Part shown: positions 3,215-18,691 of the stretch, in pieces
Numbering within the stretch: position 1 is the stretch's first letter
Layout of the letters: every line of letters begins with the position of its first letter
Assembly (NCBI GenBank): GCA_965199855.1
Contig: OZ241326.1
Coordinates: 1,696,001 to 1,760,000 of the forward strand
Direction: 5' to 3'
From: a bacterium
GTDB lineage: Bacteria > UBA8248
DNA length: 64,000 nt
Position numbers and translations under genes: made by a program
Notes under the pieces: model-generated
Told to the model about the DNA's origin: nothing
Seen by the model: only the letters and a program-made list of their open reading frames with translations
The model's database searches: none

Positions 3215-6121
3215 CTACCCAGACGACGCGCCGCGCGGGGACGCCGCTTCGGGTTTTGCGGCCTGCGGCGCGCCGCCCTCCGCCCCGGGGGCGGGGACGA
3301 AGTTCTTCTCGATCATCAGGTAGTCCCGAATCGCGCGGATTTGGCGATACGCATCCCCTCCGAGCGTCTCCTCGTCGATGGGCTCGCCATGGCTCTCGAT
3401 GCTTCCCTTGCCGATGGTCTTTCCGAGATCGACGGGGGAGGAGATGATCATCTTTTTCTCATCCATGCTCATCACCCGGACAAGGTGGGCGCTCCCGCCG
3501 ATGCGCAGGGTGGCCAGCTGCTCCTCGGCCAGCTCGGCCTCTTTCGCGGTTTCCAGCTCGTAGGCGAAGCGGCCCTCCTCCTTCTCGCCCCGCGTCCCCT
3601 TGACGACTTCGGCCCGCGCCCCCGCGCCTTCAAAGAAATTCGGCATTCTGGTTCCCGGCTGAATCTTGCCCGGGTTCACAAGCCAGTCGAATATCCAGTC
3701 GGGACGCAGGCGGCTTTTGGTGAACAGGAGGTTCGGCGCGGTCGGGGGTTCCTGCCCCGCCGGGGGCGGCCACTCTCCATGACAGGAGAGGCATTCCGCC
3801 TTCGTGAACAGCTCCTTTCCGGCTTTCCGGCTTTCCGCGCTCACGTTCGCGGCGTCGAAATGGACGTAGGGGCGAAGTTTCGAGTCCAGCGCGGCGAAGT
3901 AGTCCACGAGCGCGGCGGCGTCCTCCTCGGGCATCTGGAAGCTGGGCATCCGCACCTTCAGCCAGGGCCTCAAGGTCACGACGTCGCGCAGGAAGCCGAA
4001 GAACCAGTCCGGCTGCACCTTCCTGCCCTCGCCGTTCAGCGGGGGCGGGCCTTTCGCCTTGTCCTGGTAGCGCCGGAGGAGGTCGCCGCCCCAGTTCTCG
4101 ATCACGTGGCAGCCGCTGCAGTTGTATTTTTCGATCATCCGGCGGCCTTTTTCGATGCGCCTCGCGCGATCGTCCAGCCTGACGTGGACGCTGTGCGGCG
4201 CGCCGTGCGGCGTCATGGAGCGGAGCAGGGTGCGTATGGCGGTGACTTCCGCGTCGCTGAGCTCGAAATTCGGCATCAGGAGGGCTTCGCGCTCCGTCTG
4301 GTAGATTTGCGGGTTCTTGAGCTTGCCGAAGGTCCACGCCTCCCATGTGTGCGGCGTATCGACCACGTTCCCGAACGAAAGCTCGAACGGCTTCTTGGCG
4401 GCGAAGCGGGTGAGGTCCGGCCCGATTTTGGAGAGCGCCTCCGTGCCGGGAATGACGTGGCAGCCGAAGCAGCCTCGCGTCGCCACGAGCTTCCTGCCCC
4501 GCTCGAAGGAGGCCGCGTCGCCCAGCTTCCGGGGCTTCGGCCGCTTGGACGGCGGCGTGAGGCTGATGAGGTAGGCCGTCACCGCGCTCGCCTCCTCATC
4601 CGAGAGGCGCAGACTGGGCATCTTCGTGTCGGGCCAATACGCCTTGGGGTTTTTCAGCCACCGGCGCAGCCAGTCGGGCCGCACCTTCGCGCCGATGTTC
4701 TGAAGGGCCGGGGCGAAGTCCCGGTTGCGATAGACGATGGGCCTTCCGTTCACGCCCTCGAGGGGCGGGCCGGGGTTCAGGTCGCCTTCGCCCCGGACGT
4801 GGCAGCCCAGGCACCCGACGGACTCGAAGACGGCTTTTCCCTTTTCAATCCGCGCGGGGTCGTCCAGGTTCGGAGCCTCGCCCGGCTCCGCCTTCCGCTT
4901 GCCCTGCCGCCAGACGTAGGTGGCGATGTCGAACGCCTCCTGATCCGTCAGGCTGAAATAGGGCATTCGGGTGCGCGGGTTGTAGTCTTTCGGCTTCTTG
5001 ATCCAGGAGACGAGCCAGGAGGGCGACACCTTTTCCTGAATTCTCGACAAGTCCGGCCCCGCCTTGCGCAGACCCTCTGTGCCCGGCAGGGTGTGGCAGC
5101 CGTTGCACCCCATCTCCCGCGCGAGGGAGATGCCGCGCGAGATTTGCGGCGCCCCGGGAATGTTGAACTGCTCCGCGTGGCAGCTTCTGCACTTGGTCTG
5201 GGTCTCGCTGCCGTACAGCATGGGGTCTTCCCAGAACTGCACGTGGCCGTGGGCCTTCTCCACGCTGGTGACGGCGGTTCCCTGTCCGCCGTGGCAGAGG
5301 GTGCAGCCGACCTTGTTGAATTCGTGCTTCGAGAGATAAAGGCGCCGGTCGGGGTGCGTGCGGAACGGCTGGGGCGCGTTTTCAAACCCCGCCCGGTTGA
5401 TTCCCAGGTGGCAGGTCTGGCACCGCTCCACCTTCATCACCGGCTCGTTGAAGTTGTTGCGCTCGTATTCGCGCAGGACGATCTGGTTGATCTCGTAGGG
5501 CCGGCCGGCGATGCCCTGGAGTCGCCGCTCCTGGAAGGAAATCGCGCTCGCGGCTTTTCGCCGCGCCGCCTCGAGCGCTTCCAGTTCCTTCCTCCTGGCT
5601 TCAATCTTCGCCTTTATCGCGTCCCTGGCGGCTTCCGCCTTCTCCGCGATCGGCTGTATCTGGTCGAGCTGGGCCTTGGCTTCATCGACTTCTTTTTGCT
5701 CGGCCTCCTTGTCGTGTCCCTGGCGAATGGCTTCCTGGAGGTAGAAATAGGACTGGTCGAAAAGGGCTTTTCGGAAGCCCAGCTCCTGGACTTTCTCGAA
5801 GGCGTCGAGCTCGCTTTCGGCGAACGCCTCCCTGAGCGCCTTCAGCTCCTCGTCGCTGGCGAGCTTCTGCTTTTGGGCGGCGATTTTCCGGTCGAGTTCG
5901 GAGATTCGGGAGCCGCTCGACGCCCTGAGGCCGGCGAGCTCCTTCTCCACGAGCGCCTTCTCGTAGGCGTTGAACTCTTTTTGATACTGCTTCCAGGGCC
6001 TGCGCGTGAACGCCTCGTCCCACACCGTCCAGAACGTGACGGCGACCATGACGAGCCCGAGAATGAAGAAGGGAACGGGACTGGTTTTCTCCTCCGGAGG
6101 CTTGAAGTCTCTACCTTGCAT
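3215..6121 (-). CDS. Membrane-anchored multiheme (octaheme) cytochrome c
   Basis: N-terminal TM helix, long coiled coil, eight CxxCH motifs (CQTCH, CTLCH, CRSCH, CNGCH, CLGCH, CFGCH, CSGCH, CLSCH) and repeated W..W...P....P.T.MP.F class I cytochrome units. Confidence 0.9.
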   Translation of the reverse strand: MQGRDFKPPEEKTSPVPFFILGLVMVAVTFWTVWDEAFTRRPWKQYQKEFNAYEKALVEKELAGLRASSGSRISELDRKIAAQKQKLASDEELKALREAFAESELDAFEKVQELGFRKALFDQSYFYLQEAIRQGHDKEAEQKEVDEAKAQLDQIQPIAEKAEAARDAIKAKIEARRKELEALEAARRKAASAISFQERRLQGIAGRPYEINQIVLREYERNNFNEPVMKVERCQTCHLGINRAGFENAPQPFRTHPDRRLYLSKHEFNKVGCTLCHGGQGTAVTSVEKAHGHVQFWEDPMLYGSETQTKCRSCHAEQFNIPGAPQISRGISLAREMGCNGCHTLPGTEGLRKAGPDLSRIQEKVSPSWLVSWIKKPKDYNPRTRMPYFSLTDQEAFDIATYVWRQGKRKAEPGEAPNLDDPARIEKGKAVFESVGCLGCHVRGEGDLNPGPPLEGVNGRPIVYRNRDFAPALQNIGAKVRPDWLRRWLKNPKAYWPDTKMPSLRLSDEEASAVTAYLISLTPPSKRPKPRKLGDAASFERGRKLVATRGCFGCHVIPGTEALSKIGPDLTRFAAKKPFELSFGNVVDTPHTWEAWTFGKLKNPQIYQTEREALLMPNFELSDAEVTAIRTLLRSMTPHGAPHSVHVRLDDRARRIEKGRRMIEKYNCSGCHVIENWGGDLLRRYQDKAKGPPPLNGEGRKVQPDWFFGFLRDVVTLRPWLKVRMPSFQMPEEDAAALVDYFAALDSKLRPYVHFDAANVSAESRKAGKELFTKAECLSCHGEWPPPAGQEPPTAPNLLFTKSRLRPDWIFDWLVNPGKIQPGTRMPNFFEGAGARAEVVKGTRGEKEEGRFAYELETAKEAELAEEQLATLRIGGSAHLVRVMSMDEKKMIISSPVDLGKTIGKGSIESHGEPIDEETLGGDAYRQIRAIRDYLMIEKNFVPAPGAEGGAPQAAKPEAASPRGASSG

Positions 6122-6189
6122 TGTGAAAAAACGCTCCCCCCGGCGTTTTGAGCGAAAATCGCGGGCGCTTCCCGTCTGAAATCGGGCTG

Positions 6190-6218
6190 ATTATAGGTAT
6201 GGGCAAAAGGGGCGTCAA
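6190..6218 (-). promoter_or_regulatory. sigma70-like promoter for the cytochrome c gene
   Basis: Minus strand TTGACG-17 nt-TATAAT, about 70 nt upstream of the ATG. Confidence 0.7.
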
Positions 6219-6262
6219 CCGCAGGGCGGATAGTTTTGACTCAAGGCGCGCCGCCGGCCGGT

Positions 6263-9200
6263 CTATCCGCTCTGGCCGCGAATGATGCTGGCGAGCTGGC
6301 GGATGATGGCGACGGAGATGGCGGGATGATCGTGGATCAGCTGCAAAAGCGGCTCTTTCTCGATGCCCAGCAGGGAGGCGTCCTTGCTGGCGCGCGCGCC
6401 CGCGCTTCTGCCTTCTTCGCCGAACAGTGCGATTTCTCCGAACGAGGTGGGCGGGCCGAGCGTGGCCAGTATCCTCGGCTCCCCGCTCGTCCGGCTCTGC
6501 GTGATCTCGATTTCCCCGTCCACGATGACGTAGAGGTAGTCGCAGGGGTCTCCCTGCTCGAAAAGAATTTTTCCCGCCGGCGCCTGGATTTCCCGCGAAA
6601 TGTTGCTCAGGATTTTGAGCTGCTCCGCGCTCATCGCCTCGAACATGTTGACGCCTTTGAGGAACAGGGCCTTTTCAATGGTCGAGAGCATGGCTTTCTC
6701 CTGTCGGGATGAGGTTTCTCCGGGCCTTCCGCGCCGGCCGAGCCCGCGGCGCGCCTGAATCCGCACCATTTCGCTTTCGTCATTCTTCGCGGCTCTCAAA
6801 GCCGCTTCAACGGCTTCTTCGTCCTGCAGGACGCCCGCCAGGGCGGCGACGGCGGCCTCGCGGATGAAGGGATCCTCATGCGAGGCGCGCGCCCCGAAGC
6901 GGGCGATCCACGCCGCCGCCGTCTCATGCGCCGCGCCCGCGAGGTATTTTCCCGCCGCGTCGATGGCGATGGCCTGAAGCCAGGCGTTGTCGGAATTCGC
7001 GTATGTCTCCAGCGCCTCGTCGATGGATGCGTCGGGTATTTCCCAGAGTTTTCTGCCCTCCGAGATTTTCTCCTCGGTCGATCTGCCCAGAAGCAGGGGC
7101 TCGAGAGCGAGGATGAGGATCCTCGCGCCGCCGGCGGAGGAGAAATCCGAGAGCGTCTCGATGGCGATCGCCCTTGATGAAGAAGAGCCGCCCCGGGCGA
7201 TGGATTCCGCCACGGTGTCCACCGTCTTCTCGTCTCCAATCACCCCCAGAAGATCCAGCAGCACCAGCTGCCTCTCTTCCACGGCGTCGCCCAGCGCCTT
7301 TCGCAGCATCGTGAAGGGGGCGGCGTTTTCCTGGCGTTCGATGGCGCGGAGATGGCTGATGACGGCATACGTCTCCTTGAGGCGCTCCACGGCGAACGAG
7401 GAGAGCGCCTCGACGATTTCCGCCGCGCCCATCTCCCGCTCGTCGCTTTTGGCGCTTTTGAGCAGAAGCGGCGCGAGAAACGAAGCCACGCCGGAGCCTT
7501 CGAGGGAGAGAGTTCCTTTTCGCTTCATCTTCTTCAGGGAATCGACGGCCTGGCTTCGCACCAGCGCGTCGGCGTCCGAGAGGGCGCGCAGGGCGCGCTC
7601 GAAGTTCTCCCTCGTTCCCCTCTCGCCGAGCTGCCGCACGCCCCTGCGCCGAATCGCCGCGCTCCTGTCCGCCGTGGCCGCGCGGAGGACTTCCTCCATC
7701 TTCTCCTCGTCCACGCCCTGGTTCATGGCCAGGGCCGCGATGGCCTCCAGGGCGGCTCCGCGGACCCTTTCCTCCTCCTGATGGAGATAGGGAATCAGCC
7801 GTCTGATGAACCGCGGGTTCCGGAGTTCTCCGATGCACCGCAGAGCGCAGACCCTGGCCGCCTCGTCTTCCTCGCTGAGCATCCGGTGCAGCGTTTGCAG
7901 GCCGTTGGCGAGCCAGAAGAGGTCGTCCGATCGCACGAGCAGCCGAATGGCGCGCGCCCTCGCTTCCGGGGAGCGGCTCTCCAGGCATTGGTGAACCAGG
8001 TCCGCCATCTCCTCGGTCAGCCCGACGGCTTCGGCCGCGTCCATGGCGGCGCATTGAACGGCCGGGTCTTCCGCCGCCAGGTATTCCGCGACCACGCTCC
8101 GCATTTTTTCGCTTTCCTTCGCCTCGGGCGCCCCGGCGAGGATTTTCAGCAGCCCGGCGGCCGCCTCCCCCCTTCTCCTGGGAATTTCCGCGAGAATCGC
8201 CTCGAACGCCTCGCCCCCGCCGGCGTCGGCCATCATCCGGGCGGCGAAGACGCAGGAGTCGTCATCCCCTTCGCGCACGTTCTTTTTCAGCATCGCCGCG
8301 CTGTCGGCGTCGATCGGGCCGAAGCCCTCCCGCGCGTAGCGATAGAGGCCCAGGCTCCGCTCCTCGAGCATCCTCCGCAGGGCGGCGCCGTATTCGCGGC
8401 GCACGAAGAAGCCGGCGGCGAGGTAGGCGAGGGCGATGAAAAGAGAGATGAGCGCCACTTGGCCGGGGCTCAGGGGGAAGAGGGCGAGGCCGGTCGGCTT
8501 GATGACGAGCAGGGCTGCGCCGCTGACGATGCTGGCCACGGCCACCACCTGCCCCGCGACGAACGCGCCGACCCGCGCGCGAATGGCCGGGGAGACCGCG
8601 TTGTAGAGCAGGGCGTTGATGGCGTTTCGGATGGACTCCTGAAGGTTCTTGTTGTTGAAGCGCAGGAAGACGGCCGAATAGAAGCCCGGCGAAATCGCCA
8701 TGCCGAGGAGTCCGACGATCGTGGTGAGCGGATAGATGAGGTTCGCCGTGCCCAGACCGAGCCGCTTGATGACGCGCGGGGTGATGAACGTTTGAACGAG
8801 AAGGGAGAAGGCGCTGCCGATGGCGGTGAAATACCCGAGGAACGAGGCGAGTTGCGCGCGATCCGGGAACGCTTCCCGGAAAACGAGGCTGTATTGAAAA
8901 TCCTGAAAACTTCTGAGGATGACCACGAGAAAGCTGAACAGGGCGAACGCGCAGACGTATCCATTCGTCCTGAGCAGCGTCAGATTCCCTTCTTTCGAGG
9001 CCGTTTTCGTCCTTTTGCGCTTTCGCGGCCCCGCGTCCTCGATGAGGTGCTCCCGAAGGCGCCATTCGGCGTATTGCACCGCCCCGATGCTGACGATGAT
9101 GGCGCCGATCCACACGTAGAGCAGATTCGTGACGCTTCCCAGGACGGGGATGAGCGCCGGGATGGACAGCCCCCCCAGGATGCCGCCGCAGCGTCCCCCC

Positions 9201-9673
9201 GTCAGGATGAGCGGAACCAGCCGCTTCGATTGCAGGACGTCGAGATATTGGCCGTAGAGGGCGCGGAAGTTGTTCGGCAGCATGTTCGTGAACATGACGA
9301 ACAGCGTGTGCAGGAGCGGAAATGCGATGGGCATCGCATAGGCGCGCACGTCGGCGAAGACGAGCAGCTGGATGCCGAGGATGAGCGCGATGAAGAAGGC
9401 CAGAACGGTCTTGAACATCGCGGGGATGGACAGTTTTTCGGTCAGCGAGGAATAGAAGGAGCTGATGAGGATGATGACGAGGGCGTTGAAGATATACATG
9501 TAGGGCAGGAAGCCCGGCCCGACCTCGGAGAGGAACAGCGCCTCGGACGCGGCGAGGCCGATGGAGAACTGCACTCCGATCAGAAAATAGAACAGGAAGA
9601 ACACGGAGAAAACGAGGATTTCTTCCCGCTGGATGTCGAACGCTTTTTTGAGGAGCCTGGCCATGTTGCTCAC
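6263..9673 (-). CDS. Npt1/Npt2 (TLC/NTT)-like MFS transporter fused to HEAT repeats and a C-terminal cyclic-nucleotide-binding domain
   Basis: About 430-aa multi-TM N-terminus (ALFLSEVGPGFLPYMY, KRLVPLI, LLYNAV); Ala/Arg-rich HEAT/PBS repeats (D.D..VR..A); cNMP domain (LFEQGD..LYVIVDG, FGEIALF..RSAGARA); start 9673 (GTG) or 9664 (ATG). Confidence 0.8.
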   Translation of the reverse strand: MSNMARLLKKAFDIQREEILVFSVFFLFYFLIGVQFSIGLAASEALFLSEVGPGFLPYMYIFNALVIILISSFYSSLTEKLSIPAMFKTVLAFFIALILGIQLLVFADVRAYAMPIAFPLLHTLFVMFTNMLPNNFRALYGQYLDVLQSKRLVPLILTGGRCGGILGGLSIPALIPVLGSVTNLLYVWIGAIIVSIGAVQYAEWRLREHLIEDAGPRKRKRTKTASKEGNLTLLRTNGYVCAFALFSFLVVILRSFQDFQYSLVFREAFPDRAQLASFLGYFTAIGSAFSLLVQTFITPRVIKRLGLGTANLIYPLTTIVGLLGMAISPGFYSAVFLRFNNKNLQESIRNAINALLYNAVSPAIRARVGAFVAGQVVAVASIVSGAALLVIKPTGLALFPLSPGQVALISLFIALAYLAAGFFVRREYGAALRRMLEERSLGLYRYAREGFGPIDADSAAMLKKNVREGDDDSCVFAARMMADAGGGEAFEAILAEIPRRRGEAAAGLLKILAGAPEAKESEKMRSVVAEYLAAEDPAVQCAAMDAAEAVGLTEEMADLVHQCLESRSPEARARAIRLLVRSDDLFWLANGLQTLHRMLSEEDEAARVCALRCIGELRNPRFIRRLIPYLHQEEERVRGAALEAIAALAMNQGVDEEKMEEVLRAATADRSAAIRRRGVRQLGERGTRENFERALRALSDADALVRSQAVDSLKKMKRKGTLSLEGSGVASFLAPLLLKSAKSDEREMGAAEIVEALSSFAVERLKETYAVISHLRAIERQENAAPFTMLRKALGDAVEERQLVLLDLLGVIGDEKTVDTVAESIARGGSSSSRAIAIETLSDFSSAGGARILILALEPLLLGRSTEEKISEGRKLWEIPDASIDEALETYANSDNAWLQAIAIDAAGKYLAGAAHETAAAWIARFGARASHEDPFIREAAVAALAGVLQDEEAVEAALRAAKNDESEMVRIQARRGLGRRGRPGETSSRQEKAMLSTIEKALFLKGVNMFEAMSAEQLKILSNISREIQAPAGKILFEQGDPCDYLYVIVDGEIEITQSRTSGEPRILATLGPPTSFGEIALFGEEGRSAGARASKDASLLGIEKEPLLQLIHDHPAISVAIIRQLASIIRGQSG

Positions 9674-9751
9674 TTGCGGAGCGAGACGCGCGCGCGCCTC
9701 GCCCTCGGGGGCGCGCGGGATGGGAGCGGTAGAGAATGCCCGGATTCTAGC

Positions 9752-11389
9752 CTAGAATTTTCGGGATTTCCAGGAATAGAACGCGAGGGCGTCCTCCGCC
9801 CACTGCGCGCAGTTTTCGCTGAAGCGCCGCCAGCGGCTGTTGGCGCACTGGGCGCGAACGGGGTCGGCGTTTCCCTCAGCGATCAGGCCGCTCAGGGGCG
9901 AGAGGTCGAATTCGGCGCGCACCGGCGTTCTGCCGCGCGCCTCGGCGTTGAGGAGGGACAAGAAGCGCGCGAACGCATGGAAGGCGCCGCGAATTTTCTC
10001 GCACAGCCGCTCCGCGCCTCCCGCGTATGCTACCAGGGGGGGAACCAGGGGAGCGTAGCGGTTGAGCTCCATGCCGCCTTCCGTGCGGTTCGTGATGCTG
10101 TCCACGCCGACGACGCCGATGGAATCGTCTGAAAATTCAATCGGGAACAGTCTGGCGTAGAGCGCCTCCACAACCGGGCCCGCGCGGCTGAGCCGAAGAT
10201 GAACGCGGACGCTGAACAGGCCGAAGTCGATCCAGTCGCATACCAGCGGAAGGTAGCGGACGCCGAACAGCTGCTCGTAGTTTTCGATGGCGTCCGCCAG
10301 AAGGCGGATGGCGTCCTTTCGGGGGCGGGAGGCTTCGCGCAGGCGGGTGCCGAGTCCGGGCGCGCAGTCGCGGAGCGTTCGCCGCAGGGCGTCCGGAGAG
10401 GCCGCGCCGGACGCCGAAGGGGCGGCTTCCCGGGTCTTGACGTAGGCTTCCGAGGTGGCCGGGCTGGCGCGGAAGCGGCGCATGAGCCAGTCCAGCGCCC
10501 GGAGGTGGTCGCCGTTTTCCGCGTCGAGCGAGAGGGGAAGGGGCATCGCGCTCTCCGCGGCGACGCCGAGTCTGCTCAAATCCGGAAGCCCGAACCCGTC
10601 GGGATGCGCGTCCAGGCGGAAGCATCCGCGCCCGCCGCCCCCTTCCTGGGGCTTGATGAAGAAGGTTGCGGCTCCCCACCGCTTCGCCAGGGCGGACGCG
10701 GTATCCAGAATGGCGGCGGCCGCGGCCTCAGGCCCTCCTCCGTTCAATTCCACCACCTCGTATCTGGCCGTCAGGCGGCTCCCCCGGCCGTCCTCTGCGG
10801 CGCCTCGCCCGTTCGCGCCGCTTCCGTTCAGAAGTTGATAGGTGGTTTTCTTGTTGGACAGCGGGCCGCCGGGGGCGGTGAGCGGCCCCGGCACGACGAC
10901 GACCCCCCGCGCCTCCAGCACCTGGGCCAGGCTCGCGTCGTAGAGGCTTCGCTGGGCGGCCTGGCTGATGACGAGAAGCTCTCCGGGCGCCTTGGCGGCG
11001 CGCGCCAGAAGCTCTTCGCGCCGGTTCAGCGCCTTGACGGGGATGGAAAGCCCCAGGCGGCTCAGATGCGCGCTCATCACCCGCGCCGTCTCCGCCGTGA
11101 GGGGCAGCCGGCTCGGGGAGCCGTCCAGCAGGAGGATTTCTCCCGGACGCCGACCGGGCGCTTCTTCCCGCTGAATGCGGAGGTCGGTGAATCGGGCGTC
11201 CCGGGACGCCCATTGGTTGAGGCGATCGATCAGGGTCTCGTTCAAATCGCCGGCGTTCGAGTCGAATTCCCGGCTCACGCGGCGCAAATCCCAGACGCCG
11301 CCGCTCGCGTCGGGCGTGAGCCCGTAGAGAGAAGGCTCCCGGTCGATGAGCGCGTGGTGGGCGCGGGCTGGGGTTTTCCGTCGGGCCAC
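9752..11389 (-). CDS. Hypothetical protein, divergent ATP-grasp fold
   Basis: LSNKKTTY, FFIKPQEGGGGRGCFRL (B-loop), AEFDL and IAEGN (E-x-N) in ATP-grasp order; start uncertain (GTG 11389; ORF open to 11452). Confidence 0.55.
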   Translation of the reverse strand: MARRKTPARAHHALIDREPSLYGLTPDASGGVWDLRRVSREFDSNAGDLNETLIDRLNQWASRDARFTDLRIQREEAPGRRPGEILLLDGSPSRLPLTAETARVMSAHLSRLGLSIPVKALNRREELLARAAKAPGELLVISQAAQRSLYDASLAQVLEARGVVVVPGPLTAPGGPLSNKKTTYQLLNGSGANGRGAAEDGRGSRLTARYEVVELNGGGPEAAAAAILDTASALAKRWGAATFFIKPQEGGGGRGCFRLDAHPDGFGLPDLSRLGVAAESAMPLPLSLDAENGDHLRALDWLMRRFRASPATSEAYVKTREAAPSASGAASPDALRRTLRDCAPGLGTRLREASRPRKDAIRLLADAIENYEQLFGVRYLPLVCDWIDFGLFSVRVHLRLSRAGPVVEALYARLFPIEFSDDSIGVVGVDSITNRTEGGMELNRYAPLVPPLVAYAGGAERLCEKIRGAFHAFARFLSLLNAEARGRTPVRAEFDLSPLSGLIAEGNADPVRAQCANSRWRRFSENCAQWAEDALAFYSWKSRKF

Positions 11390-11406
11390 GGCTTCGCTTC
11401 GGATTC

Positions 11407-12576
11407 CTAGATCGTGACTTTGCGCTGGCGCATGAAGTGCTTGACCACCCAATCCGCGATCGCGCCGCCCACGGCCTTCTCGCCGGCGAGGGAGGAGGGG
11501 CTCGGCTCCATGCAGCTCAGGGCGCGTATCCCCGTCATGCGGCGCGCCTCCTCGCGCGCGTCCTCTTCGTTGGCGAGTCTGCCGGAGATGAGCATATTCT
11601 CCTCCTCCACCGCCAGATGGCTGCGGATCCAGTGGACGATGAGCGTCGATTCCAGCGTATCACACGCGCAGACGACCAGGCCCCTGCGCGCGAGCCAGTC
11701 CTTGAGCCAGGGGTCGCTCGCCACGTGAAGGCTGGCGTCCGAACAGGGAGAGTCCGCCAGTTCCGCGATGACGATCTCTCCCTTCGCGCAGGCGTGGCGA
11801 AGCAGGTTCCGCGCGCATCGCCTGGCTTCGTTCCTGAAGACGGCGCAGGTGGAGGGCAGGCCCACGTCCACGAAATCCCACCCGAGTCGCGTGGAATCGA
11901 AAAACCCCAGCTGTCTTCCGTAGTTCACCTGCATCAGATCCCGCATCCGTCCCGTCCCGGTGAGCTTCGCGTATGAGGCGCGGATGCCCGAGGAGTGCAG
12001 GGAGGAGGCGAGAGAGGACGCGCAGGTCGTCTTGCCTACGTCCATCTCGGAGCCGGCGATGAGGACGATGGGCGCGCGCGGGATTCCCTCTTCATCGACG
12101 GGGCATCGGGTGTCGGGGATGACGGGCAGACGGGAGAGCCGGGCGGGCTTCCCGCGCAGCGGGACGCTTCCCTTCACCTCGATTTTCACGCACGGGGCCT
12201 GCGGGCTCCCGCACAGGCCGGAGACGCCGCCAACGTTCAGAAGATCCAGCGCGTCGCCCGGCATGACGGGCGCGTCCGGCTCCCGGCCCGAAATGCTCCG
12301 GTTCGCATACCGCCCGCCGATGGCGACGGCCACGCTCATTTTTTCGCGCAGGCGCACCTCGCTCGTCTTCCACGCTCCCTGCGTTCCGGGGAGGGGCTCC
12401 AGTATCTCCAGGCGATTGACGGGCGCGTTTTCGGGCGCGTCGGTAATCTCGCCCAAGGCGATGCCGCCGGGGGGAACGGGCTGCGGGTCGGACGTGAAAT
12501 CCGCCTGAAACGCATACGGGCTTTCCGGCGAGAGGAACAGGCCGCGGGCGGTGGATGCGAAAAAATCTACTTTCAA
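11407..12576 (-). CDS. DUF1611/DgcN-like P-loop protein
   Basis: GSEMDVGKTT Walker-A-like loop, AKLTGTGRMRD, DFVDVGLPST, ELAD; N-terminal GGRYA..G and LDLLNVGGVSG; TTG start overlaps the upstream stop (TTGA). Confidence 0.65.
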   Translation of the reverse strand: MKVDFFASTARGLFLSPESPYAFQADFTSDPQPVPPGGIALGEITDAPENAPVNRLEILEPLPGTQGAWKTSEVRLREKMSVAVAIGGRYANRSISGREPDAPVMPGDALDLLNVGGVSGLCGSPQAPCVKIEVKGSVPLRGKPARLSRLPVIPDTRCPVDEEGIPRAPIVLIAGSEMDVGKTTCASSLASSLHSSGIRASYAKLTGTGRMRDLMQVNYGRQLGFFDSTRLGWDFVDVGLPSTCAVFRNEARRCARNLLRHACAKGEIVIAELADSPCSDASLHVASDPWLKDWLARRGLVVCACDTLESTLIVHWIRSHLAVEEENMLISGRLANEEDAREEARRMTGIRALSCMEPSPSSLAGEKAVGGAIADWVVKHFMRQRKVTI

Positions 12577-14033
12577 CGCTTCTCCATGTCCCGGGAAGGC
12601 GAAAGAGCGAGATGCCGAGTGAACGCATCTATCATTTCGCGCGCGGAGGAGGATATCTGCGCCTCCCCTCCTTCATGGATGGAGGAAATCCCCTCCAGCT
12701 TGCAGAACGCCCCCCTCGGCTCCACTATCGCCCCTTTCGCCGGGGGAGAGCAAGTGACGAGAACCTCATCGCGCTCCCGAACCTCGTGCAGGCGGGAGCC
12801 TCGCCGGATGAATTCGAGGCTCCCGTTTCTGATGGCGTATACGCCGGGCGTCAGCGAGCGGCCGACCCTCACGCGCGCCGCGCTCGTGTTGCGAAGGATC
12901 AGCTGAAAGCCTGAGAGCTCCGGCTTGTCGAGGTCGGCGAGCAGGCCCCGGCGCTCGTCCATGGAGGCGCCCGGGTCGAGAAATTCGGCCAGATGCCAGT
13001 AGGTGGTGGGGGGGGCGCCGCCGCCCTGGATTTCCTCGAGCTCGGTCATCAGCTGCGTGGTTCCGAGCACGCGCGGGTTCAGCTCCAGGGCGTAGGGCCT
13101 GTCTTGGTGGACGATGAAATCGACGCCGTATATTCCCCGGTAGCCCGCGCCGGCTATCCACTCTCCGATTTTCAGGGTGGCTTCCTCGATTTTCCGCCGA
13201 CTCGCCGGAGAAACCCGCCGCCGATACGCCGCGTAGTCGCTGCCGGCGTAGTCGAAGCGGTGCATGGAGCAGCCGGGAATCCCGGTGAACATCACCGAGG
13301 GGTGGGACATCCAGGGCTTTCCGCCGCGAACGACTCCCGCCGCGCCGACGGCGGGGCCCTCTAGGAATTTGCTCGCTATCACGAGGGCGTCTCGCCCCAG
13401 TTTCTCGATGAGTTCGGCCCGCTTGCGCGAGAGTGCCCCGGGTGAGCCGATGAGGTGCGTCTGGTTGCCCGAGGAGCCGATGCGCTCGGAGACGATCATC
13501 GAGGGCCCGAATTCCTCAAGCTGCCTCGCGCCCAGCTCGCCCAGCGCCGTCGCTTCGCCCGGGGGAACGTCGAGACCGGCTTCGACGGCGCGGAGGCGAA
13601 ACGCTATCTTGTCGTCGAAGCGGGTTTTGATCTTCACCGGATTCGCCAGGACGCGGAGCCCGCCCCCGGCCCGCTCCGCGAGTTCGGCGAGAAATTCCGT
13701 GGAGCGATAGGGGATGACGCATCGCGGGCCCTCTCCTCGCGAGAGGTATTCCCGAATCTCCCGTCCCAGCGCGCCCGCGTATGCCTCCACCAGGGAGGCG
13801 TGCGTCCAGACGATGCGCCTGTTTTGGCCGCGCTCCACGGCGAAGTAGCGCAGGCGTCCGTCCCATTCGGGGCCGTCCAGTCCGTAGTCGCAGGCGATGA
13901 GAAAATCGAGGGGAACGATGTTCTCCACCGTGATGGAATCCGCCGCGCGCAGTCCCTGGAAGCCGAACGTCGCGCCCTCCGGAACGGCGGCGCGCAGCCT
14001 GTCGTAAAGCTCTTCTTTCGCGGGCCGGGCCAA
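12573..14033 (-). CDS. ATP-grasp domain protein (putative amide/peptide ligase)
   Basis: FDDKIAFR, IGSSGNQT, GYRGIYGVDFIV, LELNPR motifs; TTG start with GAAGGA upstream. Confidence 0.8.
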   Translation of the reverse strand: MARPAKEELYDRLRAAVPEGATFGFQGLRAADSITVENIVPLDFLIACDYGLDGPEWDGRLRYFAVERGQNRRIVWTHASLVEAYAGALGREIREYLSRGEGPRCVIPYRSTEFLAELAERAGGGLRVLANPVKIKTRFDDKIAFRLRAVEAGLDVPPGEATALGELGARQLEEFGPSMIVSERIGSSGNQTHLIGSPGALSRKRAELIEKLGRDALVIASKFLEGPAVGAAGVVRGGKPWMSHPSVMFTGIPGCSMHRFDYAGSDYAAYRRRVSPASRRKIEEATLKIGEWIAGAGYRGIYGVDFIVHQDRPYALELNPRVLGTTQLMTELEEIQGGGAPPTTYWHLAEFLDPGASMDERRGLLADLDKPELSGFQLILRNTSAARVRVGRSLTPGVYAIRNGSLEFIRRGSRLHEVRERDEVLVTCSPPAKGAIVEPRGAFCKLEGISSIHEGGEAQISSSAREMIDAFTRHLALSPSRDMEKR

Positions 14034-14090
14034 AAGGCGCGTTCCTTCGTCGGGAGATCGCCCGGAACGTCGGGGCGGCGGAAACGGCTG

Positions 14091-14119
14091 ATTCTAATCC
14101 GGCGGCTTCGCCGCATCAA
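14091..14119 (-). promoter_or_regulatory. sigma70-like promoter for the ATP-grasp operon
   Basis: Minus strand TTGATG-17 nt-TAGAAT, about 60 nt upstream of 14033. Confidence 0.55.
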
Positions 14120-14265
14120 ACGGCGCCCCGATGGTTCGCGGCGGGGGAGGACTCCGGGTGGGGGCTTCCGCGCCGCGCCGCGCCCTGTGATAGGATGCGC
14201 GGCGAACCATTTCCAGGAGCGCGGCGGCGAGGCGCGGAAGCTCGCGAACGCCGGGAGAGGGGCGA

Positions 14266-15180
14266 ATGCCGGAAACGGCTCTTGAGGCGGATGAATGCTC
14301 GGTGATCCCGGCGTCGGAGTCCGGAGGGGAGAAATTCCGGCGAAGCCTGATGCGCTCCAAGCCGGCGGTGCTCGGCGGTGCCTTCCTCGTTCTGCTCGTT
14401 CTCGTTTCTCTCGCCGCTCCCCTCATCGCGCCGCAAAACCCGAAGAAGGTGGACGTGCGCCTGCGCCTCAAGCCTCCCGCGTGGGCGGAGGGGGGAAACG
14501 CGAGCCATCTGCTGGGAACCGACGCGCTGGGCCGCGACGTCCTGAGCCGGCTCATGTACGGCGGGCGCGTCTCCATCGTGGTGGGCCTGAGTTCGGTGGT
14601 GATTTCGGGGGCGATCGGGGTCGTCCTCGGCCTCGTTTCCGGCTTTTTCGGCGGAAAGCTGGACGACCTCATCAGCGGATTCTCCGAAATTCAGCTGGCG
14701 TTTCCCTTCATCCTTCTGGCCATCACCATCATGGCGGTCATCGGGCCGGGGCTGCTCAACATCATTCTGGTGCTGGGCGTCAGCCGGTGGGTGGCATACG
14801 GCCGGGTGGTGAGGGGGCAGGTCATCTCGATTCGGGAGCGCGAATTCATCGAGGCCGCCCGCGCCCTGGGCTACCCTCTCCATCGCGTCCTGTTCATGCA
14901 GGTGCTGCCCAACGCGCTCTCCCCGCTCATCGTCATCGCCACGTTCGCCGTGGCGGGAAACATCATTTCCGAATCCTCGCTGAGCTTCCTGGGGCTCGGC
15001 GTTCCGCCCTCGGTCGTCACCTGGGGGGGAATGCTCTCCGAGGGGCGCGAGTATCTTCGCGGCGCCTGGTGGATGGCGACTTTCCCGGGGTTCGCCATCA
15101 TGGCGACGGTCCTGAGCATCAACCTGCTCGGCGACTGGCTGAGGGACTACATGGACCCCCGCCTCGGCGACGATTTGTAG
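14266..15180 (+). CDS. dppC: Peptide/nickel ABC transporter permease (DppC/OppC-like)
   Basis: HLLGTDALGRDVLSRLMYGGRVS, EAARALG (EAA loop), ESSLSFLGLG, NLLGDWLRD. Confidence 0.9.
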   Translation: MPETALEADECSVIPASESGGEKFRRSLMRSKPAVLGGAFLVLLVLVSLAAPLIAPQNPKKVDVRLRLKPPAWAEGGNASHLLGTDALGRDVLSRLMYGGRVSIVVGLSSVVISGAIGVVLGLVSGFFGGKLDDLISGFSEIQLAFPFILLAITIMAVIGPGLLNIILVLGVSRWVAYGRVVRGQVISIREREFIEAARALGYPLHRVLFMQVLPNALSPLIVIATFAVAGNIISESSLSFLGLGVPPSVVTWGGMLSEGREYLRGAWWMATFPGFAIMATVLSINLLGDWLRDYMDPRLGDDL

Positions 15181-15210
15181 GCTCTTTTCGCTTTCTCGGA
15201 GAAGGACGCG

Positions 15211-16758
15211 ATGAAGAAGGCCCTGCTGTGCGGATTCTGTCTGCTGGCTCTCGCCCTCGCCGCCTGCGGCCGCGAAGCGGGGGAGAAGCCGCTTACGGTT
15301 CTCCTCTCGGTGGAGGCGAACACGCTCGACCCCCATTTCGCCACCTCCACCATCGAGTGGTGCGTCCTGATGAACCTGTTCGACCCGCTCATCCACCGGC
15401 GCGACGACATGACGCTCGAACCGGCGCTCGCCGAGCGCTGGGAGGTGGACGAGACCAGGAAAGTCTGGACGTTTCACCTCCGCAAGGGGGTGAAGTTTCA
15501 CAACGGCGAGCCGTTCGACGCCGAATCCGTGCGATACACTTTCGAGCGGATGCGCGATGAGAGGCTCAGGCCCCGCATCACGGCGGCGCGAAGGATTTTC
15601 CTGGACAGGGTGGAGAAGGCGGACGCCCACACCGTGAGGATTCACACGAAGCGTCCGGTGGCGAACCTGCCGGTGTGGATGGTGAACGCCTTCATGCTGC
15701 CGCCGAAATACTATTCGTCCACGCCTCCGAAGGAGCTGCTGAGAAAGCCCGTGGGCACCGGCCCCTACAGGCTGGTGAAGTGGATCAAGGACGACCGGAT
15801 CGAGATGGAGGCCAACGGCGCCTGGTGGCGGGGCGGGCCGAAGATCGGGCGCGCGGTGTGGCGGCCGGTGCCCGAGGCCTCCGCGCGGATAGCGGAGCTG
15901 GAAACGGGCGGAGCCGACATCATCATGAACATCTCGCCCGATCAGGCGAAAACCATAAAGGCGAGCGCGGACGGCCTTCAGTTCATGGGGGTGCAGGGGG
16001 GGCGGCGGGTGTATATCGGGATTCGCGCCGACCACGGCGCGCTGGGCGATGAGCGCGTTCGCCGGGCGCTGAACTACGCGGTCGATTTCGACGCCATCGC
16101 CAAAAGCGTTCTCCTGGGGCACGGCTCCCGGATGGGCAGCGTCGTGAACGCCCCGAACAGCGCCCCGGACGTGAAGGCGTATCCCCACGATCCCGAAAAG
16201 GCCAGGGCGCTTCTCGCCGAGGCCGGCCTGGAGGATTCGGACGGAGACGGCGTTCTGGAGACGAACGGAGAGCCCTTCGAGCTCAGGCTCGACGTGCCCG
16301 CCGCCAGGTATCTCAAGGGCAAGGAGATAGCCGAATCCGTGGCGGCGAATTTCCGCGCCGTGGGCGTCAAAGTGGAGGTCATTCCCCTGGAATGGTCGGT
16401 TTTTCTCGCCAAGAGAAGAAAGAAGACGCTCGCGCCCCTGTATTTTCACGGGTTCAGCTCCGCCTTCAACGAGGAGCTCGACCTGGGCGCGCTGCGCCCC
16501 GACCTGTTCGCCAACCTCACCGCCTGGCGGAGCGAGGCGTTCATCAGGAACTACGAAAAACTCGGCCAGACGTTCGACCCCGCAGAGCGCAGGCGAATCA
16601 GCTACGCCATGCAGCGCATCGCGCGGGAGGCCAGCCCCTGGGTGTTTCTCTGGAGCCAGTATGATTTTTTCGGCGTCAGCGCGAGAGCCGCGTGGACGCC
16701 GAGGCCGGACGAGAGAATCTATCTGCCCTCCGTCCGTTTGAGGGAAGCGAAGGAATAA
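15211..16758 (+). CDS. Peptide ABC transporter substrate-binding lipoprotein (family 5)
   Basis: Lipobox LAAC; PALAERW..WTFHLRKGVKFHNGEPFDAESV; PVGTGPY; VRRALNYAVD. Confidence 0.9.
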   Translation: MKKALLCGFCLLALALAACGREAGEKPLTVLLSVEANTLDPHFATSTIEWCVLMNLFDPLIHRRDDMTLEPALAERWEVDETRKVWTFHLRKGVKFHNGEPFDAESVRYTFERMRDERLRPRITAARRIFLDRVEKADAHTVRIHTKRPVANLPVWMVNAFMLPPKYYSSTPPKELLRKPVGTGPYRLVKWIKDDRIEMEANGAWWRGGPKIGRAVWRPVPEASARIAELETGGADIIMNISPDQAKTIKASADGLQFMGVQGGRRVYIGIRADHGALGDERVRRALNYAVDFDAIAKSVLLGHGSRMGSVVNAPNSAPDVKAYPHDPEKARALLAEAGLEDSDGDGVLETNGEPFELRLDVPAARYLKGKEIAESVAANFRAVGVKVEVIPLEWSVFLAKRRKKTLAPLYFHGFSSAFNEELDLGALRPDLFANLTAWRSEAFIRNYEKLGQTFDPAERRRISYAMQRIAREASPWVFLWSQYDFFGVSARAAWTPRPDERIYLPSVRLREAKE

Positions 16759-16838: not shown

Positions 16839-17756
16839 ATGGGCGCCTATCTTTTCAGAAGGCTCGTCAGAGCCGTCGTGGTCGTGGCCGGCGTCAGCTT
16901 CATTTCGTTCGCCGTCCTGTTCCTCTCGGGCGATCCGACGGACACGATGGTGGGCGAGGACTGGACGGTCGAGGAGGTCGGGAATCTCCGCCGGGAGATG
17001 GGCCTGGACAAGCCCTGGTTCGCGCAATATGGGCTGTACGTGAGCCGGGCCGTTCGCGGCGATTTTGGAGAAAGCCTGCGCTACCGCCAGCCCGCGTTCG
17101 AGCTCATCATGGAGCGCCTGCCGGCGACCCTGGAGCTCGCCTTCACGGCGCTCATTCTATCCATCGTCCTGGCGTTTCCCGTGGGGGTCGTGAGCGCGGC
17201 GCGGCGCGGCTCGCCCTACGATCACGGGGGAATGCTCTTCGCGCTCCTGGGCCAGTCCGTCCCCGTTTTCTGGCTCGGCCTGATGCTGATCCTCATCTTC
17301 GGGGTGCATCTGCGGTGGCTGCCGATCAGCGGAAGGAGCGGGTGGGAGCATCTGCTTCTGCCCGCCGCCGCGCTCGCCACCTATTCGATCGCCCGAAACG
17401 CGCGGGTGGTGCGGAGCGCCATGCTGGAGGTTCTGCGGCACGAATACGTGAAGACCGCCCGGGCGAAGGGATTGCCCGAATGGGTCGTCATCAACCTGCA
17501 CGCGCTCAGAAATTCCCTGATTCCGGTGATCACGATCATCGGCCTCGAGTTCGGGCACCTGCTGGGCGGGGCGGTGATCGTCGAGACGATATTCGCCTGG
17601 CCGGGCGTGGGCAGGCTCATGATCCAGGCCGTCTATGCGAAGGATTTCCCCCTCGTGCAGGCTTCGGTGACCATCACCGCGCTGATGTTCGTCTCCCTGA
17701 ACCTCATCGTTGACCTGATGTATTCCGTCCTCGATCCGAGGGTCAGACTGCATTGA
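16839..17756 (+). CDS. dppB: Peptide/nickel ABC transporter permease (DppB/OppB-like)
   Basis: GLDKP..QY, GDFGES, RLPATLEL, TARAKGL, ETIFAWPGVG, DPRVR. Confidence 0.9.
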   Translation: MGAYLFRRLVRAVVVVAGVSFISFAVLFLSGDPTDTMVGEDWTVEEVGNLRREMGLDKPWFAQYGLYVSRAVRGDFGESLRYRQPAFELIMERLPATLELAFTALILSIVLAFPVGVVSAARRGSPYDHGGMLFALLGQSVPVFWLGLMLILIFGVHLRWLPISGRSGWEHLLLPAAALATYSIARNARVVRSAMLEVLRHEYVKTARAKGLPEWVVINLHALRNSLIPVITIIGLEFGHLLGGAVIVETIFAWPGVGRLMIQAVYAKDFPLVQASVTITALMFVSLNLIVDLMYSVLDPRVRLH

Positions 17757-18691
17757 GCGACATCGCGTATTTCTGGACGCCGGAATCCCTCCTGCACGAC
17801 AACGGCCGCCACGTGGAGAGCGTCGAGCGCGCCAGGCGCCTTGCGCCCGACAGGATCGCTCCGCAGGTTCCCTCGCTGAAGAATATGGCGGCCGCGCCCC
17901 ACGACGCCTCCGCGTGGGTGCTGAGGGTGCATGAGGAGGCGCACCACCGGTTCGTGCGCGAATCGTGCGCGAGGGGCCGCTGCGTTCTGGATCAGGGGGA
18001 CACCCGCGCCGGCCCCGGAAGCTACGAGGCCGCGCTCGCCGCCGTGGACGCGGCCCTCAGCGCGGCGGACGCCGTGATGACCGGACAGGCCGACGGCGCC
18101 TTTTGCGCCGCGAGGCCGCCGGGCCACCACGCTCTGCCCCATCAGTCGATGGGCTTCTGCCTGTTCGCCACCGTCTCCATTCTGGCGCGGTATCTGCAGG
18201 AGGAGCACGGCCTGCGAAGAATCGCCGTGGTCGATTGGGACGTGCACCACGGCAACGGCACCCAGCGCGTCTTCTGGCGCGACCCGGACGTGCTCTTCGT
18301 CTCCCTGCATCAGCATCCGCACTATCCGGGGACGGGCCTCGCCGGTGAAGCGGGAGAAGGGGCGGGCGCGGGCAAGACGCTGAACGTTCCCCTCGGGGCG
18401 GGGACGCCGGAGGCGGAATATCTGGCGAAATTCCGGGAGCTCGCGCTCCCCGCCGTCGAGGCGCACGCGCCGGAGGCGATCCTCATCTCGGCGGGCTTCG
18501 ACGCGCATCGCGATGATCCGCTCGGGGGTCTGACGCTGAGCGAGGCGGGATTCGCCGAATTGACCCGATGCGTCAGGGCGCTCTCGGAGGAGGTTTGCGA
18601 AGGGCGCGTCGTCAGCCTGCTCGAGGGCGGGTATGATCTCGACGCCCTGGAGCGCTCCGTCGTATCCCACCTGCGGGCGCTGTCCGCCTGA
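17753..18691 (+). CDS. Histone deacetylase family amidohydrolase
   Basis: RPPGHHA, GFC, DWDVHHGNGTQ, SAGFD, LEGGY; TTG start overlaps the dppB stop. Confidence 0.92.
   Translation: MSDIAYFWTPESLLHDNGRHVESVERARRLAPDRIAPQVPSLKNMAAAPHDASAWVLRVHEEAHHRFVRESCARGRCVLDQGDTRAGPGSYEAALAAVDAALSAADAVMTGQADGAFCAARPPGHHALPHQSMGFCLFATVSILARYLQEEHGLRRIAVVDWDVHHGNGTQRVFWRDPDVLFVSLHQHPHYPGTGLAGEAGEGAGAGKTLNVPLGAGTPEAEYLAKFRELALPAVEAHAPEAILISAGFDAHRDDPLGGLTLSEAGFAELTRCVRALSEEVCEGRVVSLLEGGYDLDALERSVVSHLRALSA

Follow-up and report, generated by a model that had tools for sequence, protein, structure and literature searches.

The 64,000-nucleotide stretch of bacterial DNA analysed here (hereafter the window) covers positions 1,696,001 to 1,760,000 of contig OZ241326.1 (GenBank assembly GCA_965199855.1; GTDB lineage UBA8248) and carries, at its positions 6263-14033, a set of four genes, g1 to g4, that is restricted to one bacterial lineage and has not been described previously. 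The set encodes two ATP-grasp proteins (g1 and g3), a P-loop protein (g2) and a large membrane protein in which a permease is followed by a HEAT solenoid and a cyclic-nucleotide-monophosphate (cNMP)-binding domain (g4). We suggest, with a confidence not far short of even, that g1-g4 are an operon, confined to this lineage, for the biosynthesis of a small peptide-like metabolite with amide linkages. A preliminary description of the window, made from its letters and open reading frames, had proposed that no described pathway combines these genes, and none was found in the literature searched.

Gene order, start sites and promoters

The genome around the window is a 3.04-Mb single contig of about 65% G+C. 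Four co-oriented open reading frames fill the region, with two promoter-like sites:

12573-14033, minus strand: g1, 486 amino acids (aa), TTG start, ATP-grasp carboxylate-amine ligase
11407-12576, minus strand: g2, 389 aa, TTG start, two-domain P-loop protein
9752-11389, minus strand: g3, 545 aa from a GTG at 11389, highly divergent ATP-grasp protein with extra helical insertions
6263-9664, minus strand: g4, 1133 aa from a conserved ATG, permease plus HEAT solenoid plus cNMP-binding domain
14091-14119, minus strand: promoter upstream of g1, sigma-70-like, TTGATG-17-TAGAAT, from scan and conservation
9744-9772, minus strand: second promoter-like site, TGGAAA-17-TAGAAT, running from the last g3 codons into the g3-g4 spacer

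The layout given in the preliminary description is confirmed in most respects, with four co-oriented genes, the motifs GYRGIYGVDF and ELNPR in the g1 translation and GSEMDVGKTT in that of g2, an overlap of the g1 stop with the g2 start as TTGA, and a 17-nucleotide (nt) gap between g2 and g3, which holds with g3 starting at the GTG at 11389. The beginning of g4 needs revision. An open reading frame from a GTG (6263-9673) does give the 1136 aa and the 78-nt g3-g4 gap originally quoted, but an ATG at 9664, opening the sequence MA(R/K)LLKK, is conserved in an alignment of 16 genomes and gives 1133 aa and a gap of 87 nt; judged by this conservation the ATG is the most likely start and the GTG at 9673 the less likely one. 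The gaps within the operon thus come to 0, 17 and 87 nt, with g2 ending in a TAG at 11407-11409. The open reading frame listed for g3 (9752-11452) has 566 codons for amino acids, and the start assigned by gene callers, the GTG at 11389 that yields 545 aa, is most likely the one used.

A promoter scan of positions 5800-14600 returned four sites, against 0.8 +/- 0.9 in shuffled sequences. The sigma-70-like site noticed earlier at 14091-14119 is real as a pattern, and its -10 hexamer is conserved: of 15 aligned genomes, 12 have exactly TAGAAT and three differ from it by one base. The TTG start of g1 is conserved in the genus rows of the alignment, together with a purine-rich, GAAGGA-like ribosome-binding site. 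In the second site, TGGAAA is invariant in 16 of 16 aligned genomes, yet it also codes for Trp-Lys, and a -10-like hexamer follows at equal spacing in the aligned genomes. The scan found no terminator-like site between the operon genes, g3-g4 included, and an Rfam scan of positions 5800-15300 found no RNA family at an expectation value (E) of 0.1 or below, so that no known riboswitch lies in the g3-g4 spacer. The 232-nt spacer between g1 and a divergent permease gene (starting at 14266) contains no conserved open reading frame, and only its promoter elements are conserved. We infer that g1-g4 are co-transcribed. All four genes are under purifying selection, with ratios of nonsynonymous to synonymous substitution rates of 0.15-0.23 against two relatives of the genus (0.10-0.18 for five neighbouring genes).

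Distribution, co-occurrence and loss

A word-based search of 5.8 billion proteins recovered 53 clusters for g3, 56 for g2 and 53 for g1, and all of the named ones came from the same bacterial group; where the records carry names, these are Nitrospinae, Nitrospinota or 'Tectomicrobia'. This group is small and made up of uncultured marine and sponge-associated bacteria. Sequencing runs labelled as sponge metagenomes also contain the stretch, and none of the 21 runs listed for it is an RNA run. Among 51 genomes of the phylum, g1 and g2 each have a match in 36, g3 in 35, and g4, full-length or split between contigs, in 35. All four genes are found together in 35 of these genomes and none of them in 15. 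The remaining genome, G014, is the 36th for g1 and g2: it has an intact g2 and two fragments of an internally deleted g1, and has lost g3 and g4. Scanning 185,579 species genomes with a pattern derived from the g3 alignment gave 30 loci, 29 of which were examined; 26 carry all four genes in the same order and in the other three the contig ends inside the cluster. The co-conservation across genomes that the preliminary description had put forward for testing therefore holds within the lineage, with all four genes in 35 of 51 genomes and a consistent order in 29 of 29 loci, numbers that overstate independence because the genomes are related and the region is syntenic. In the divergent genome G026 the four genes are still adjacent at 34-39% identity, and the cytochrome gene that flanks g4 in the window was not found beside it.

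A scan of metagenomes gave a further 33 loci, in 15 of which the g2 profile was the best match. Twelve of these 15 keep g1 and/or g3 and g4 as far as the contig allows (L080 and L081 among them appear to be duplicate entries of a single sequence), and one contig is too short to tell. On one divergent contig, L071, g2 (36% identity) lies next to g3 (35%).

The genomes in which the set is incomplete or missing allow the extent of the loss to be mapped. In G057 a single deletion has taken out everything between the middle of g4 and the end of a DppB-like permease gene on the far side of g1, and in G024 and G049 a deacetylase gene beyond that permease lies directly beside the cytochrome gene downstream of g4. 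These scars define the lost unit as seven genes, comprising g1-g4 and three divergently oriented genes for parts of an ATP-binding cassette (ABC) importer (listed under Flanking genes). There were at least two separate deletion events with scars (G014 and G057), and possibly more.

Two unrelated ATP-grasp proteins

The assignment of g1 to the ATP-grasp proteins was borne out by a match above the cut-off to PF02655 (ATP-grasp_3; 28.1 bits, cut-off 23.2) over residues 151-325. The 'biotin carboxylase' equivalog model NF005096 (PRK06524) matches collinearly, with residues 92-424 of g1 on 95-425 of 493, and scores 58.7 bits against a cut-off of 684, so g1 is a distant relative only. The nearest solved sequence is that of BesA (8yi6, E 6.1e-5), an L-propargylglycine-L-glutamate ligase that served as the comparison system for g1 and that also gives a local match in the family scan; the g1 profile additionally matches biotin carboxylase, carbamoyl-phosphate synthetase and PurD domains. 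Invariant positions in the alignment of g1 orthologues include D305 in the VDF stretch and E317, N319, P320 and R321 in the ELNPR motif.

The product of g3 was described earlier as a very divergent ATP-grasp protein, and this stands on its predicted structure; no sequence model detects it. No Pfam or NCBIfam family matches g3 at E<=0.1, and its profile finds no ATP-grasp protein among PDB sequences at E<=1. An AlphaFold2 model built from 24 sequences (predicted local distance difference test, pLDDT, 83.9; predicted template modelling score 0.87) has the three-domain ATP-grasp fold. Superposition with VIA-align places 275 of 282 residues of ArgX on the model (Z 20.4, root-mean-square deviation 3.1), followed by LysX (Z 19.9), DcsG (19.8), RimK (18.1) and Ddl (18.0); 679 of 1000 chains reach a Z of at least 8, and Foldseek returns 271 matches at E<=0.001. 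The structures closest to g3 thus include LysX, ArgX and RimK, which align with it along almost their entire length, whereas g3 has no detectable sequence similarity to them, is almost twice as long and carries large helical insertions, which in the model lie outside the ATP-grasp core. Clusters of the RimK, YheC/D and TTL types are among its neighbours in the Atlas, a protein-language-model map. Across the 24 sequences K246, P247, G250-G253 and G255 of the KPQEGGGGRG stretch are invariant, as are D495, E505 and N507; this glycine-rich stretch and the D...E-x-N pattern may be the counterparts of the nucleotide loop and metal ligands of ATP-grasp enzymes. A gene for a LysW-like small acidic-tailed carrier was not found in the cluster, the rest of the genome not having been searched.

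The possibility that g1 and g3 are duplicates of one another was rejected, a profile-profile comparison with hhalign giving a probability of 0.1%.

The P-loop protein g2 and its wider family

The g2 protein carries the motifs GSEMDVGKTT, KLTGTGR, DFVD and AELAD, and its AlphaFold2 model (pLDDT 82.4) consists of a beta-rich N-terminal domain followed by a SIMIBI-type nucleotide-binding domain. Its sub-threshold family matches, to DUF1611, AAA_26 and BioD, cluster around the P-loop: DUF1611 (PF07755) reaches 17.2 bits (cut-off 25) and covers residues 168-209 only, and BioD (TIGR00347) scores 19.5 bits against 83.3 over residues 172-213. The best sequence match in the PDB is BioD (E 2.7e-4 with the g2 profile and 5.7e-7 with a profile of the wide family). 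Foldseek places the ligase domain of CTP synthase and BioD at the top, and the VIA-align scores are tied at a Z of about 12, with Cfd1 at 12.8, BioD at 12.6-11.8 and the DUF1611/DgcN structures 2g0t, 2obn and 7xrj at 12.3, 12.0 and 11.8. Of the label 'DUF1611-like' in the preliminary description, a remote resemblance survives; the family assignment does not, at 17.2 bits against 25 and with BioD and Cfd1 tying with DUF1611/DgcN.

With BioD and the CTP synthase ligase domain, g2 shares the fold of its C-terminal domain and the pattern of a P-loop plus a second lysine. It differs from them in that the similarity extends no further than about 45 residues around the P-loop and in that g2 adds a 165-residue beta-rich N-terminal domain and has no glutaminase domain. 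The DUF1611/DgcN proteins, by comparison, are two-domain proteins of similar size, and their alignments extend further into the N-terminal domain of g2 (from model residues 70-97 onward); in sequence they are remote, the wide-family profile giving 2g0t an E of 0.094 and not listing DgcN. The title of PDB entry 7xrj describes DgcN as an N-acetyltransferase.

The family to which g2 belongs is large. In a profile search of 1.84 billion representative sequences, 761 clusters were recovered at E<=1e-3, and 388 remain at E<=1e-10; most contain proteins of about 340-380 aa. None of 24 scanned relatives passes the DUF1611 cut-off (the best reaches 22.4 bits) and no P-loop family cut-off is passed by any except that of MobB by one. 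Names vary: the sole named cluster member is called MobB, and plasmid records use dethiobiotin synthase, DUF1611 domain-containing or hypothetical protein. Forty distant relatives keep an invariant Walker-A lysine, the second lysine (KLTG) and an acidic ELxD motif. No characterised member was found in the available portions of the literature searched. A weak match to cyanophycin synthetase in one of 40 wide-family members raised the idea of a cyanophycin-like storage polymer, which was rejected since nothing else supports it.

The contexts of seven of nine plasmid-borne relatives were inspected (the H1 and H3 records carry no annotation). On three Rhodobacterales plasmids the relative follows an alpha/beta-hydrolase or hypothetical gene and is directly followed by an ABC exporter, overlapping it in two and lying 5 nt from it in the third. 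On plasmids, g2 itself finds its best matches (67-79 bits with a profile of g2 only) in Bacillus paranthracis (NZ_CP116206.1) and Priestia megaterium (NZ_CP085446.1), where the relative lies inside uncharacterised phosphonate-type clusters. Both of these Bacillaceae clusters hold a phosphoenolpyruvate (PEP) mutase and split genes of the phosphonopyruvate-decarboxylase type (thiamine-pyrophosphate-dependent), along with one or two ATP-grasp genes, a carbamoyltransferase and an MFS transporter. The remaining two plasmid contexts are uninformative. Around metagenomic members of the wide family, 60 of 91 candidate open reading frames were scanned. In four loci, all from one syntenic lineage, an M20 peptidase gene overlaps the start of the g2 relative, a GCS2-type ligase follows the relative in one locus, and a carbamoyltransferase gene adjoins it or lies near it in two others, one of them with an MFS gene. 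These contexts indicate that the g2 family behaves like an enzyme of amino-acid-derived small-molecule pathways.

As a separate observation, the pairing of a carbamoyltransferase with a g2-like gene recurs, on the two Bacillaceae plasmids (L059 and L060) and in metagenome loci L087 and L091.

The transporter-like protein g4

All of the roughly 11-12 hydrophobic segments of g4 fall within residues 19-424, followed by a HEAT solenoid at about 480-990 (HEAT_2, 83.2 bits in four stretches) and a cNMP-binding domain at about 1005-1130 (PF00027, 75.4 bits at 1030-1115). The membrane part is harder to classify. Residues 1-470 score only 17.1 bits with MFS_1, and the TLC model (PF03219, cut-off 21 bits) matches neither this region at E<=10 nor four orthologues at E<=1. 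On the other hand, TLC, MFS_1 and HEAT_2 are carried by the Atlas clusters nearest to g4, with TLC in 30-87% of their members, and an alignment of 393 residues (23% identity, E 5e-16) links g4 to a stand-alone 427-aa paralogue in a related genome, which itself scores 22.2 bits with TLC against the cut-off of 21 and 31.5 with MFS_1. This indirect evidence suggests a TLC/MFS-like membrane part. The earlier label 'NTT-like' is accordingly retained on account of the language-model neighbours and the TLC-positive paralogue, with the qualification that the Pfam TLC model misses g4 and four orthologues.

The membrane domain of g4 is followed by HEAT repeats and, at the C-terminus, by a cNMP-binding domain, which is the architecture of the NTT-HEAT-cNBD fusions (Major et al. 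2017, PMC5381601). The available text of that paper describes NTT-HEAT and NTT-HEAT-cNBD fusions as monophyletic and widespread, occurring in many bacteria and in oomycetes, with no known function or substrate, and treats HEAT repeats as protein-interaction modules. In domain order g4 agrees with these fusions; it differs in going unscored by Pfam TLC, and no link of the family to ligase genes is reported in the same text. A tblastn search of plasmids with g4 gave matches to the cNMP domain alone (at most 16% of the query), and large cNMP-domain open reading frames in three more distant genomes (L061-L063) have only that domain in common with g4 and are uninformative as to context.

Other genera of the clade also contain stand-alone cNMP-binding proteins, in open frames of 228-324 aa (on G023:C53, G045:C64, G046:C120, G054:C21, G055:C80, G056:C483 and G057:C164), which are 55-63% identical to the C-terminal domain of g4. 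Four of these seven genomes carry stand-alone NTT-like paralogues of about 430-445 aa as well.

Cyclic-nucleotide signalling in the genus

The genome of the window (G000) encodes two class III cyclases (PF00211), and its single PF00027 match is the C-terminus of g4. Both cyclase genes lie outside the window:

G000:C1:794284-796509 (L069:1784-4009): cyclase with a HAMP domain
G000:C1:106309-108060 (L070:1810-3561): cyclase with a 2Fe-2S ferredoxin domain

The ferredoxin domain suggests, from sequence, a possible redox input into cNMP signalling. Four further genomes of the genus (G001, G008, G019 and G020) likewise have g4 as their sole PF00027 match above the cut-off, making five tested. No other cNMP receptor of a Pfam type was found in these genomes of the genus, so the two cyclases probably signal through g4. 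Consistent with this, G014, which has lost g3 and g4 and is 97% complete, has no PF00027 match and is the only one of 22 genomes in the genus without a PF00211 cyclase match, so that the whole cNMP signalling pathway seems to have gone with g4. This is a single event, but it fits with g4 being the main cNMP effector in the genus. Other genera of the clade have many cyclases in addition to their stand-alone cNMP-binding paralogues, whose identity to the g4 C-terminus spans 55-66%.

A possible biosynthetic operon and its alternatives

The chemistry, the substrate and the direction of transport, like the connection with the ABC genes, we infer as follows. The two unrelated ATP-grasp proteins would each form an acyl-phosphate from a carboxylate and couple it to an amine. 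The g2 protein, whose active-site layout resembles those of BioD and the CTP-synthase ligase domain, may carry out a third nucleotide-dependent step on the same amino-acid-type scaffold, such as amidation, ring closure or N-acylation. The permease of g4 could transport the product, or a precursor, through the membrane in a manner controlled by cyclic nucleotides, and the divergent peptide/opine-type ABC importer may re-import a related compound or supply one. In known terms the parts belong to established superfamilies, and ligases with a transporter are a known kind of cluster. The closest comparison is with ATP-grasp peptide-ligase clusters, namely that of BesA and the phosphonate clusters (bioRxiv 10.1101/2021.04.07.438883, in its available part), which likewise combine one or two ATP-grasps with a dedicated transporter; g1 is locally like BesA, and a g2 homologue lies in the two Bacillaceae plasmid clusters. 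The set described here differs in having no PEP mutase, carbamoyltransferase or other scaffold-forming gene, in ATP-grasps that are not orthologous, and in a transporter that is an NTT/MFS-like-HEAT-cNBD fusion and not a plain MFS or ABC exporter. New, then, are the gene combination, the NTT-HEAT-cNBD-type partner as the only cNMP receptor found in the tested genus genomes, and the unnamed g2 family.

Several observations weigh against a dedicated operon of this kind. Conservation of the set is entirely vertical within one clade, and the neighbourhood as a whole, from RelA, EndoV and the cytochrome gene through to the deacetylase gene, is syntenic, so that adjacency alone is weak evidence inside the clade. 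Intact g2 is retained in G014, and a 53%-identical g2 homologue stands alone between FAA-hydrolase and amidase genes in L079 and L083, perhaps the same organism; g1, g3 and g4 are absent from the stored flanks of both, which extend about 7.8 kb on each side in L079 and, in L083, 2.7-3.6 kb, where the contig ends. Neither the g1 nor the g3 profile matches the ATP-grasp genes of the Bacillaceae clusters, which makes those clusters a parallel of kind and not of orthology. A conserved promoter-like element of its own (9772-9744) precedes g4, and the NTT-HEAT-cNBD architecture is, according to the available text of PMC5381601, widespread in other phyla. Finally, because the structure matches tie, g2 could, as judged from its model, be a coenzyme A-dependent acyltransferase like DgcN and not an ATP-dependent ligase. 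In other organisms, pairings of an acyltransferase with an ATP-grasp ligase make N-acetylated di- and tripeptides, and such a pairing would fit a DgcN-like reading of g2.

The main alternative, which we regard as somewhat unlikely, is that g1-g3 form a small ligase operon and that g4 is an unrelated, independently transcribed, cNMP-regulated transporter or signalling protein, serving for example in nucleotide or cofactor exchange, which stays adjacent only because the clade rarely rearranges this region. The conserved TGGAAA-17-TAGAAT-like element at the end of g3 and the 87-nt spacer would suit this reading, as would the family-wide synteny, the stand-alone NTT-like and cNMP-binding paralogues in other genera, and a fusion family that the available text of PMC5381601 presents as monophyletic, widely distributed and of no known function. 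Set against this are the distribution and the losses: full-length g4 is found in exactly the 35 genomes with g1-g3, always sharing their contig and directly after g3 where contigs allow, and is lost or truncated whenever g1-g3 are lost, which includes the at least two separately scarred deletions in G014 and G057. The absence of a terminator-like site between g3 and g4 also speaks against this alternative, and in G026 the adjacency holds at 38% identity where the cytochrome gene was not found beside g4. Were the alternative true, the locus would be an ordinary lineage-specific ligase operon beside an unrelated transporter.

Next, and to our minds distinctly unlikely, is that the ligases act on a protein or carrier-bound intermediate, with g3 and perhaps g1 adding amino acids to a C-terminus or side chain, the target being encoded elsewhere or being the HEAT/C-terminal part of g4. 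It is the structural matches of g3 that recommend this. ArgX (20.4), LysX (19.9) and RimK (18.1) all act on protein C-termini, the first two using the carrier LysW and RimK using ribosomal protein S6; the Atlas neighbours of g3 point the same way, the large helical insertions predicted in g3 could dock a protein, and the HEAT repeats of g4 are interaction modules in the available text of PMC5381601. However, DcsG (19.8), a D-cycloserine synthetase by its entry titles, scores level with ArgX and LysX, and Ddl reaches 18.0. DcsG and Ddl act on small molecules. The nearest solved relative of g1 is a free amino-acid ligase, distant g2 relatives lie in small-molecule clusters, and the operon has no room for a carrier or precursor gene, nor does the 232-nt spacer hold a conserved frame for one. 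A related candidate, a ribosomally synthesised and post-translationally modified peptide of the graspetide/microviridin type, was rejected, as no precursor-peptide gene was found in the operon gaps or in the 232-nt upstream spacer.

If the biosynthetic interpretation is carried to its full extent, g4 would be a cNMP-gated conduit for the ligase product, the sole cNMP output in the genus and the first context for an NTT-HEAT-cNBD protein, and g2 would represent a new enzyme family for ATP-dependent amide or ureido formation on amino-acid-derived scaffolds in many cryptic clusters, those for phosphonates in Bacillaceae included; as a joint claim this is unlikely. Its parts are of use individually. 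The strict tie within the clade between g4 and three ligase-type enzymes offers a testable handle on transport by NTT-HEAT-cNBD proteins and its control by cNMP. The g2 family, a large one without a family model of its own, turns up repeatedly in small-molecule clusters, and establishing its reaction would annotate hundreds of genes. The organisms are uncultured. Because the stretch occurs in sponge-metagenome runs, a dedicated metabolite, whether secreted or stored, could be relevant to symbiosis.

Flanking genes

The genes on either side of the operon are:

14266-15180, plus strand: DppC/OppC-like permease, by family match
15211-16758, plus strand: family-5 (peptide/nickel/opine) solute-binding protein, by family match
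16839-17756, plus strand: DppB/NikB-like permease, by family match
17753-18691, plus strand: histone-deacetylase-family gene, overlapping the stop of the DppB-like permease gene by 4 nt
3215-6121, minus strand: multihaem cytochrome c of 968 aa, with Cytochrom_C, Cytochrome_CBB3 and FixO-like matches, downstream of g4
6218-6190, minus strand: promoter-like site of the cytochrome gene, the best match of the region (11/12)

The three ABC genes are removed by the same deletions as g1-g4 in G014 and G057, and in G024 and G049 the locus lacks them; given this shared loss, they may form one functional unit with g1-g4. In four genomes without the block (G024, G049, G050 and G056) the solute-binding protein has only paralogues, of at most 35% identity. 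No ATPase gene was found in or near the importer block. The deacetylase-family gene, which has no NCBIfam match at E<=1e-10, survives every deletion of the seven-gene block (G014, G057, G024 and G049), and the cytochrome gene is retained in genomes that have lost g1-g4.

These genes raise a last alternative, in which the seven-gene block serves for uptake and conversion and not for biosynthesis: a peptide, an opine or an N-acyl compound drawn from seawater or the host sponge would be re-ligated, recycled or detoxified, with g4 sensing or exchanging a related metabolite. Although the joint loss of the ABC genes in these four deletion genomes, the distant paralogues left in the four block-less ones, the peptide/nickel/opine family of the solute-binding protein and the sponge-metagenome runs are all in keeping with it, we consider this very unlikely, since an operon of three ATP-consuming ligase-type enzymes that lacks a hydrolase is better suited to synthesis than to catabolism, the ABC block comes without an ATPase gene, deletion of the block spares the deacetylase-family gene next to it, and single large deletions can remove neighbours as a by-product.

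In G057, which has lost the block, a 60%-identical copy of the solute-binding protein gene on a different contig (L054; G057:C112:7350-8851) is split over two reading frames and represents either a pseudogene or an assembly error.

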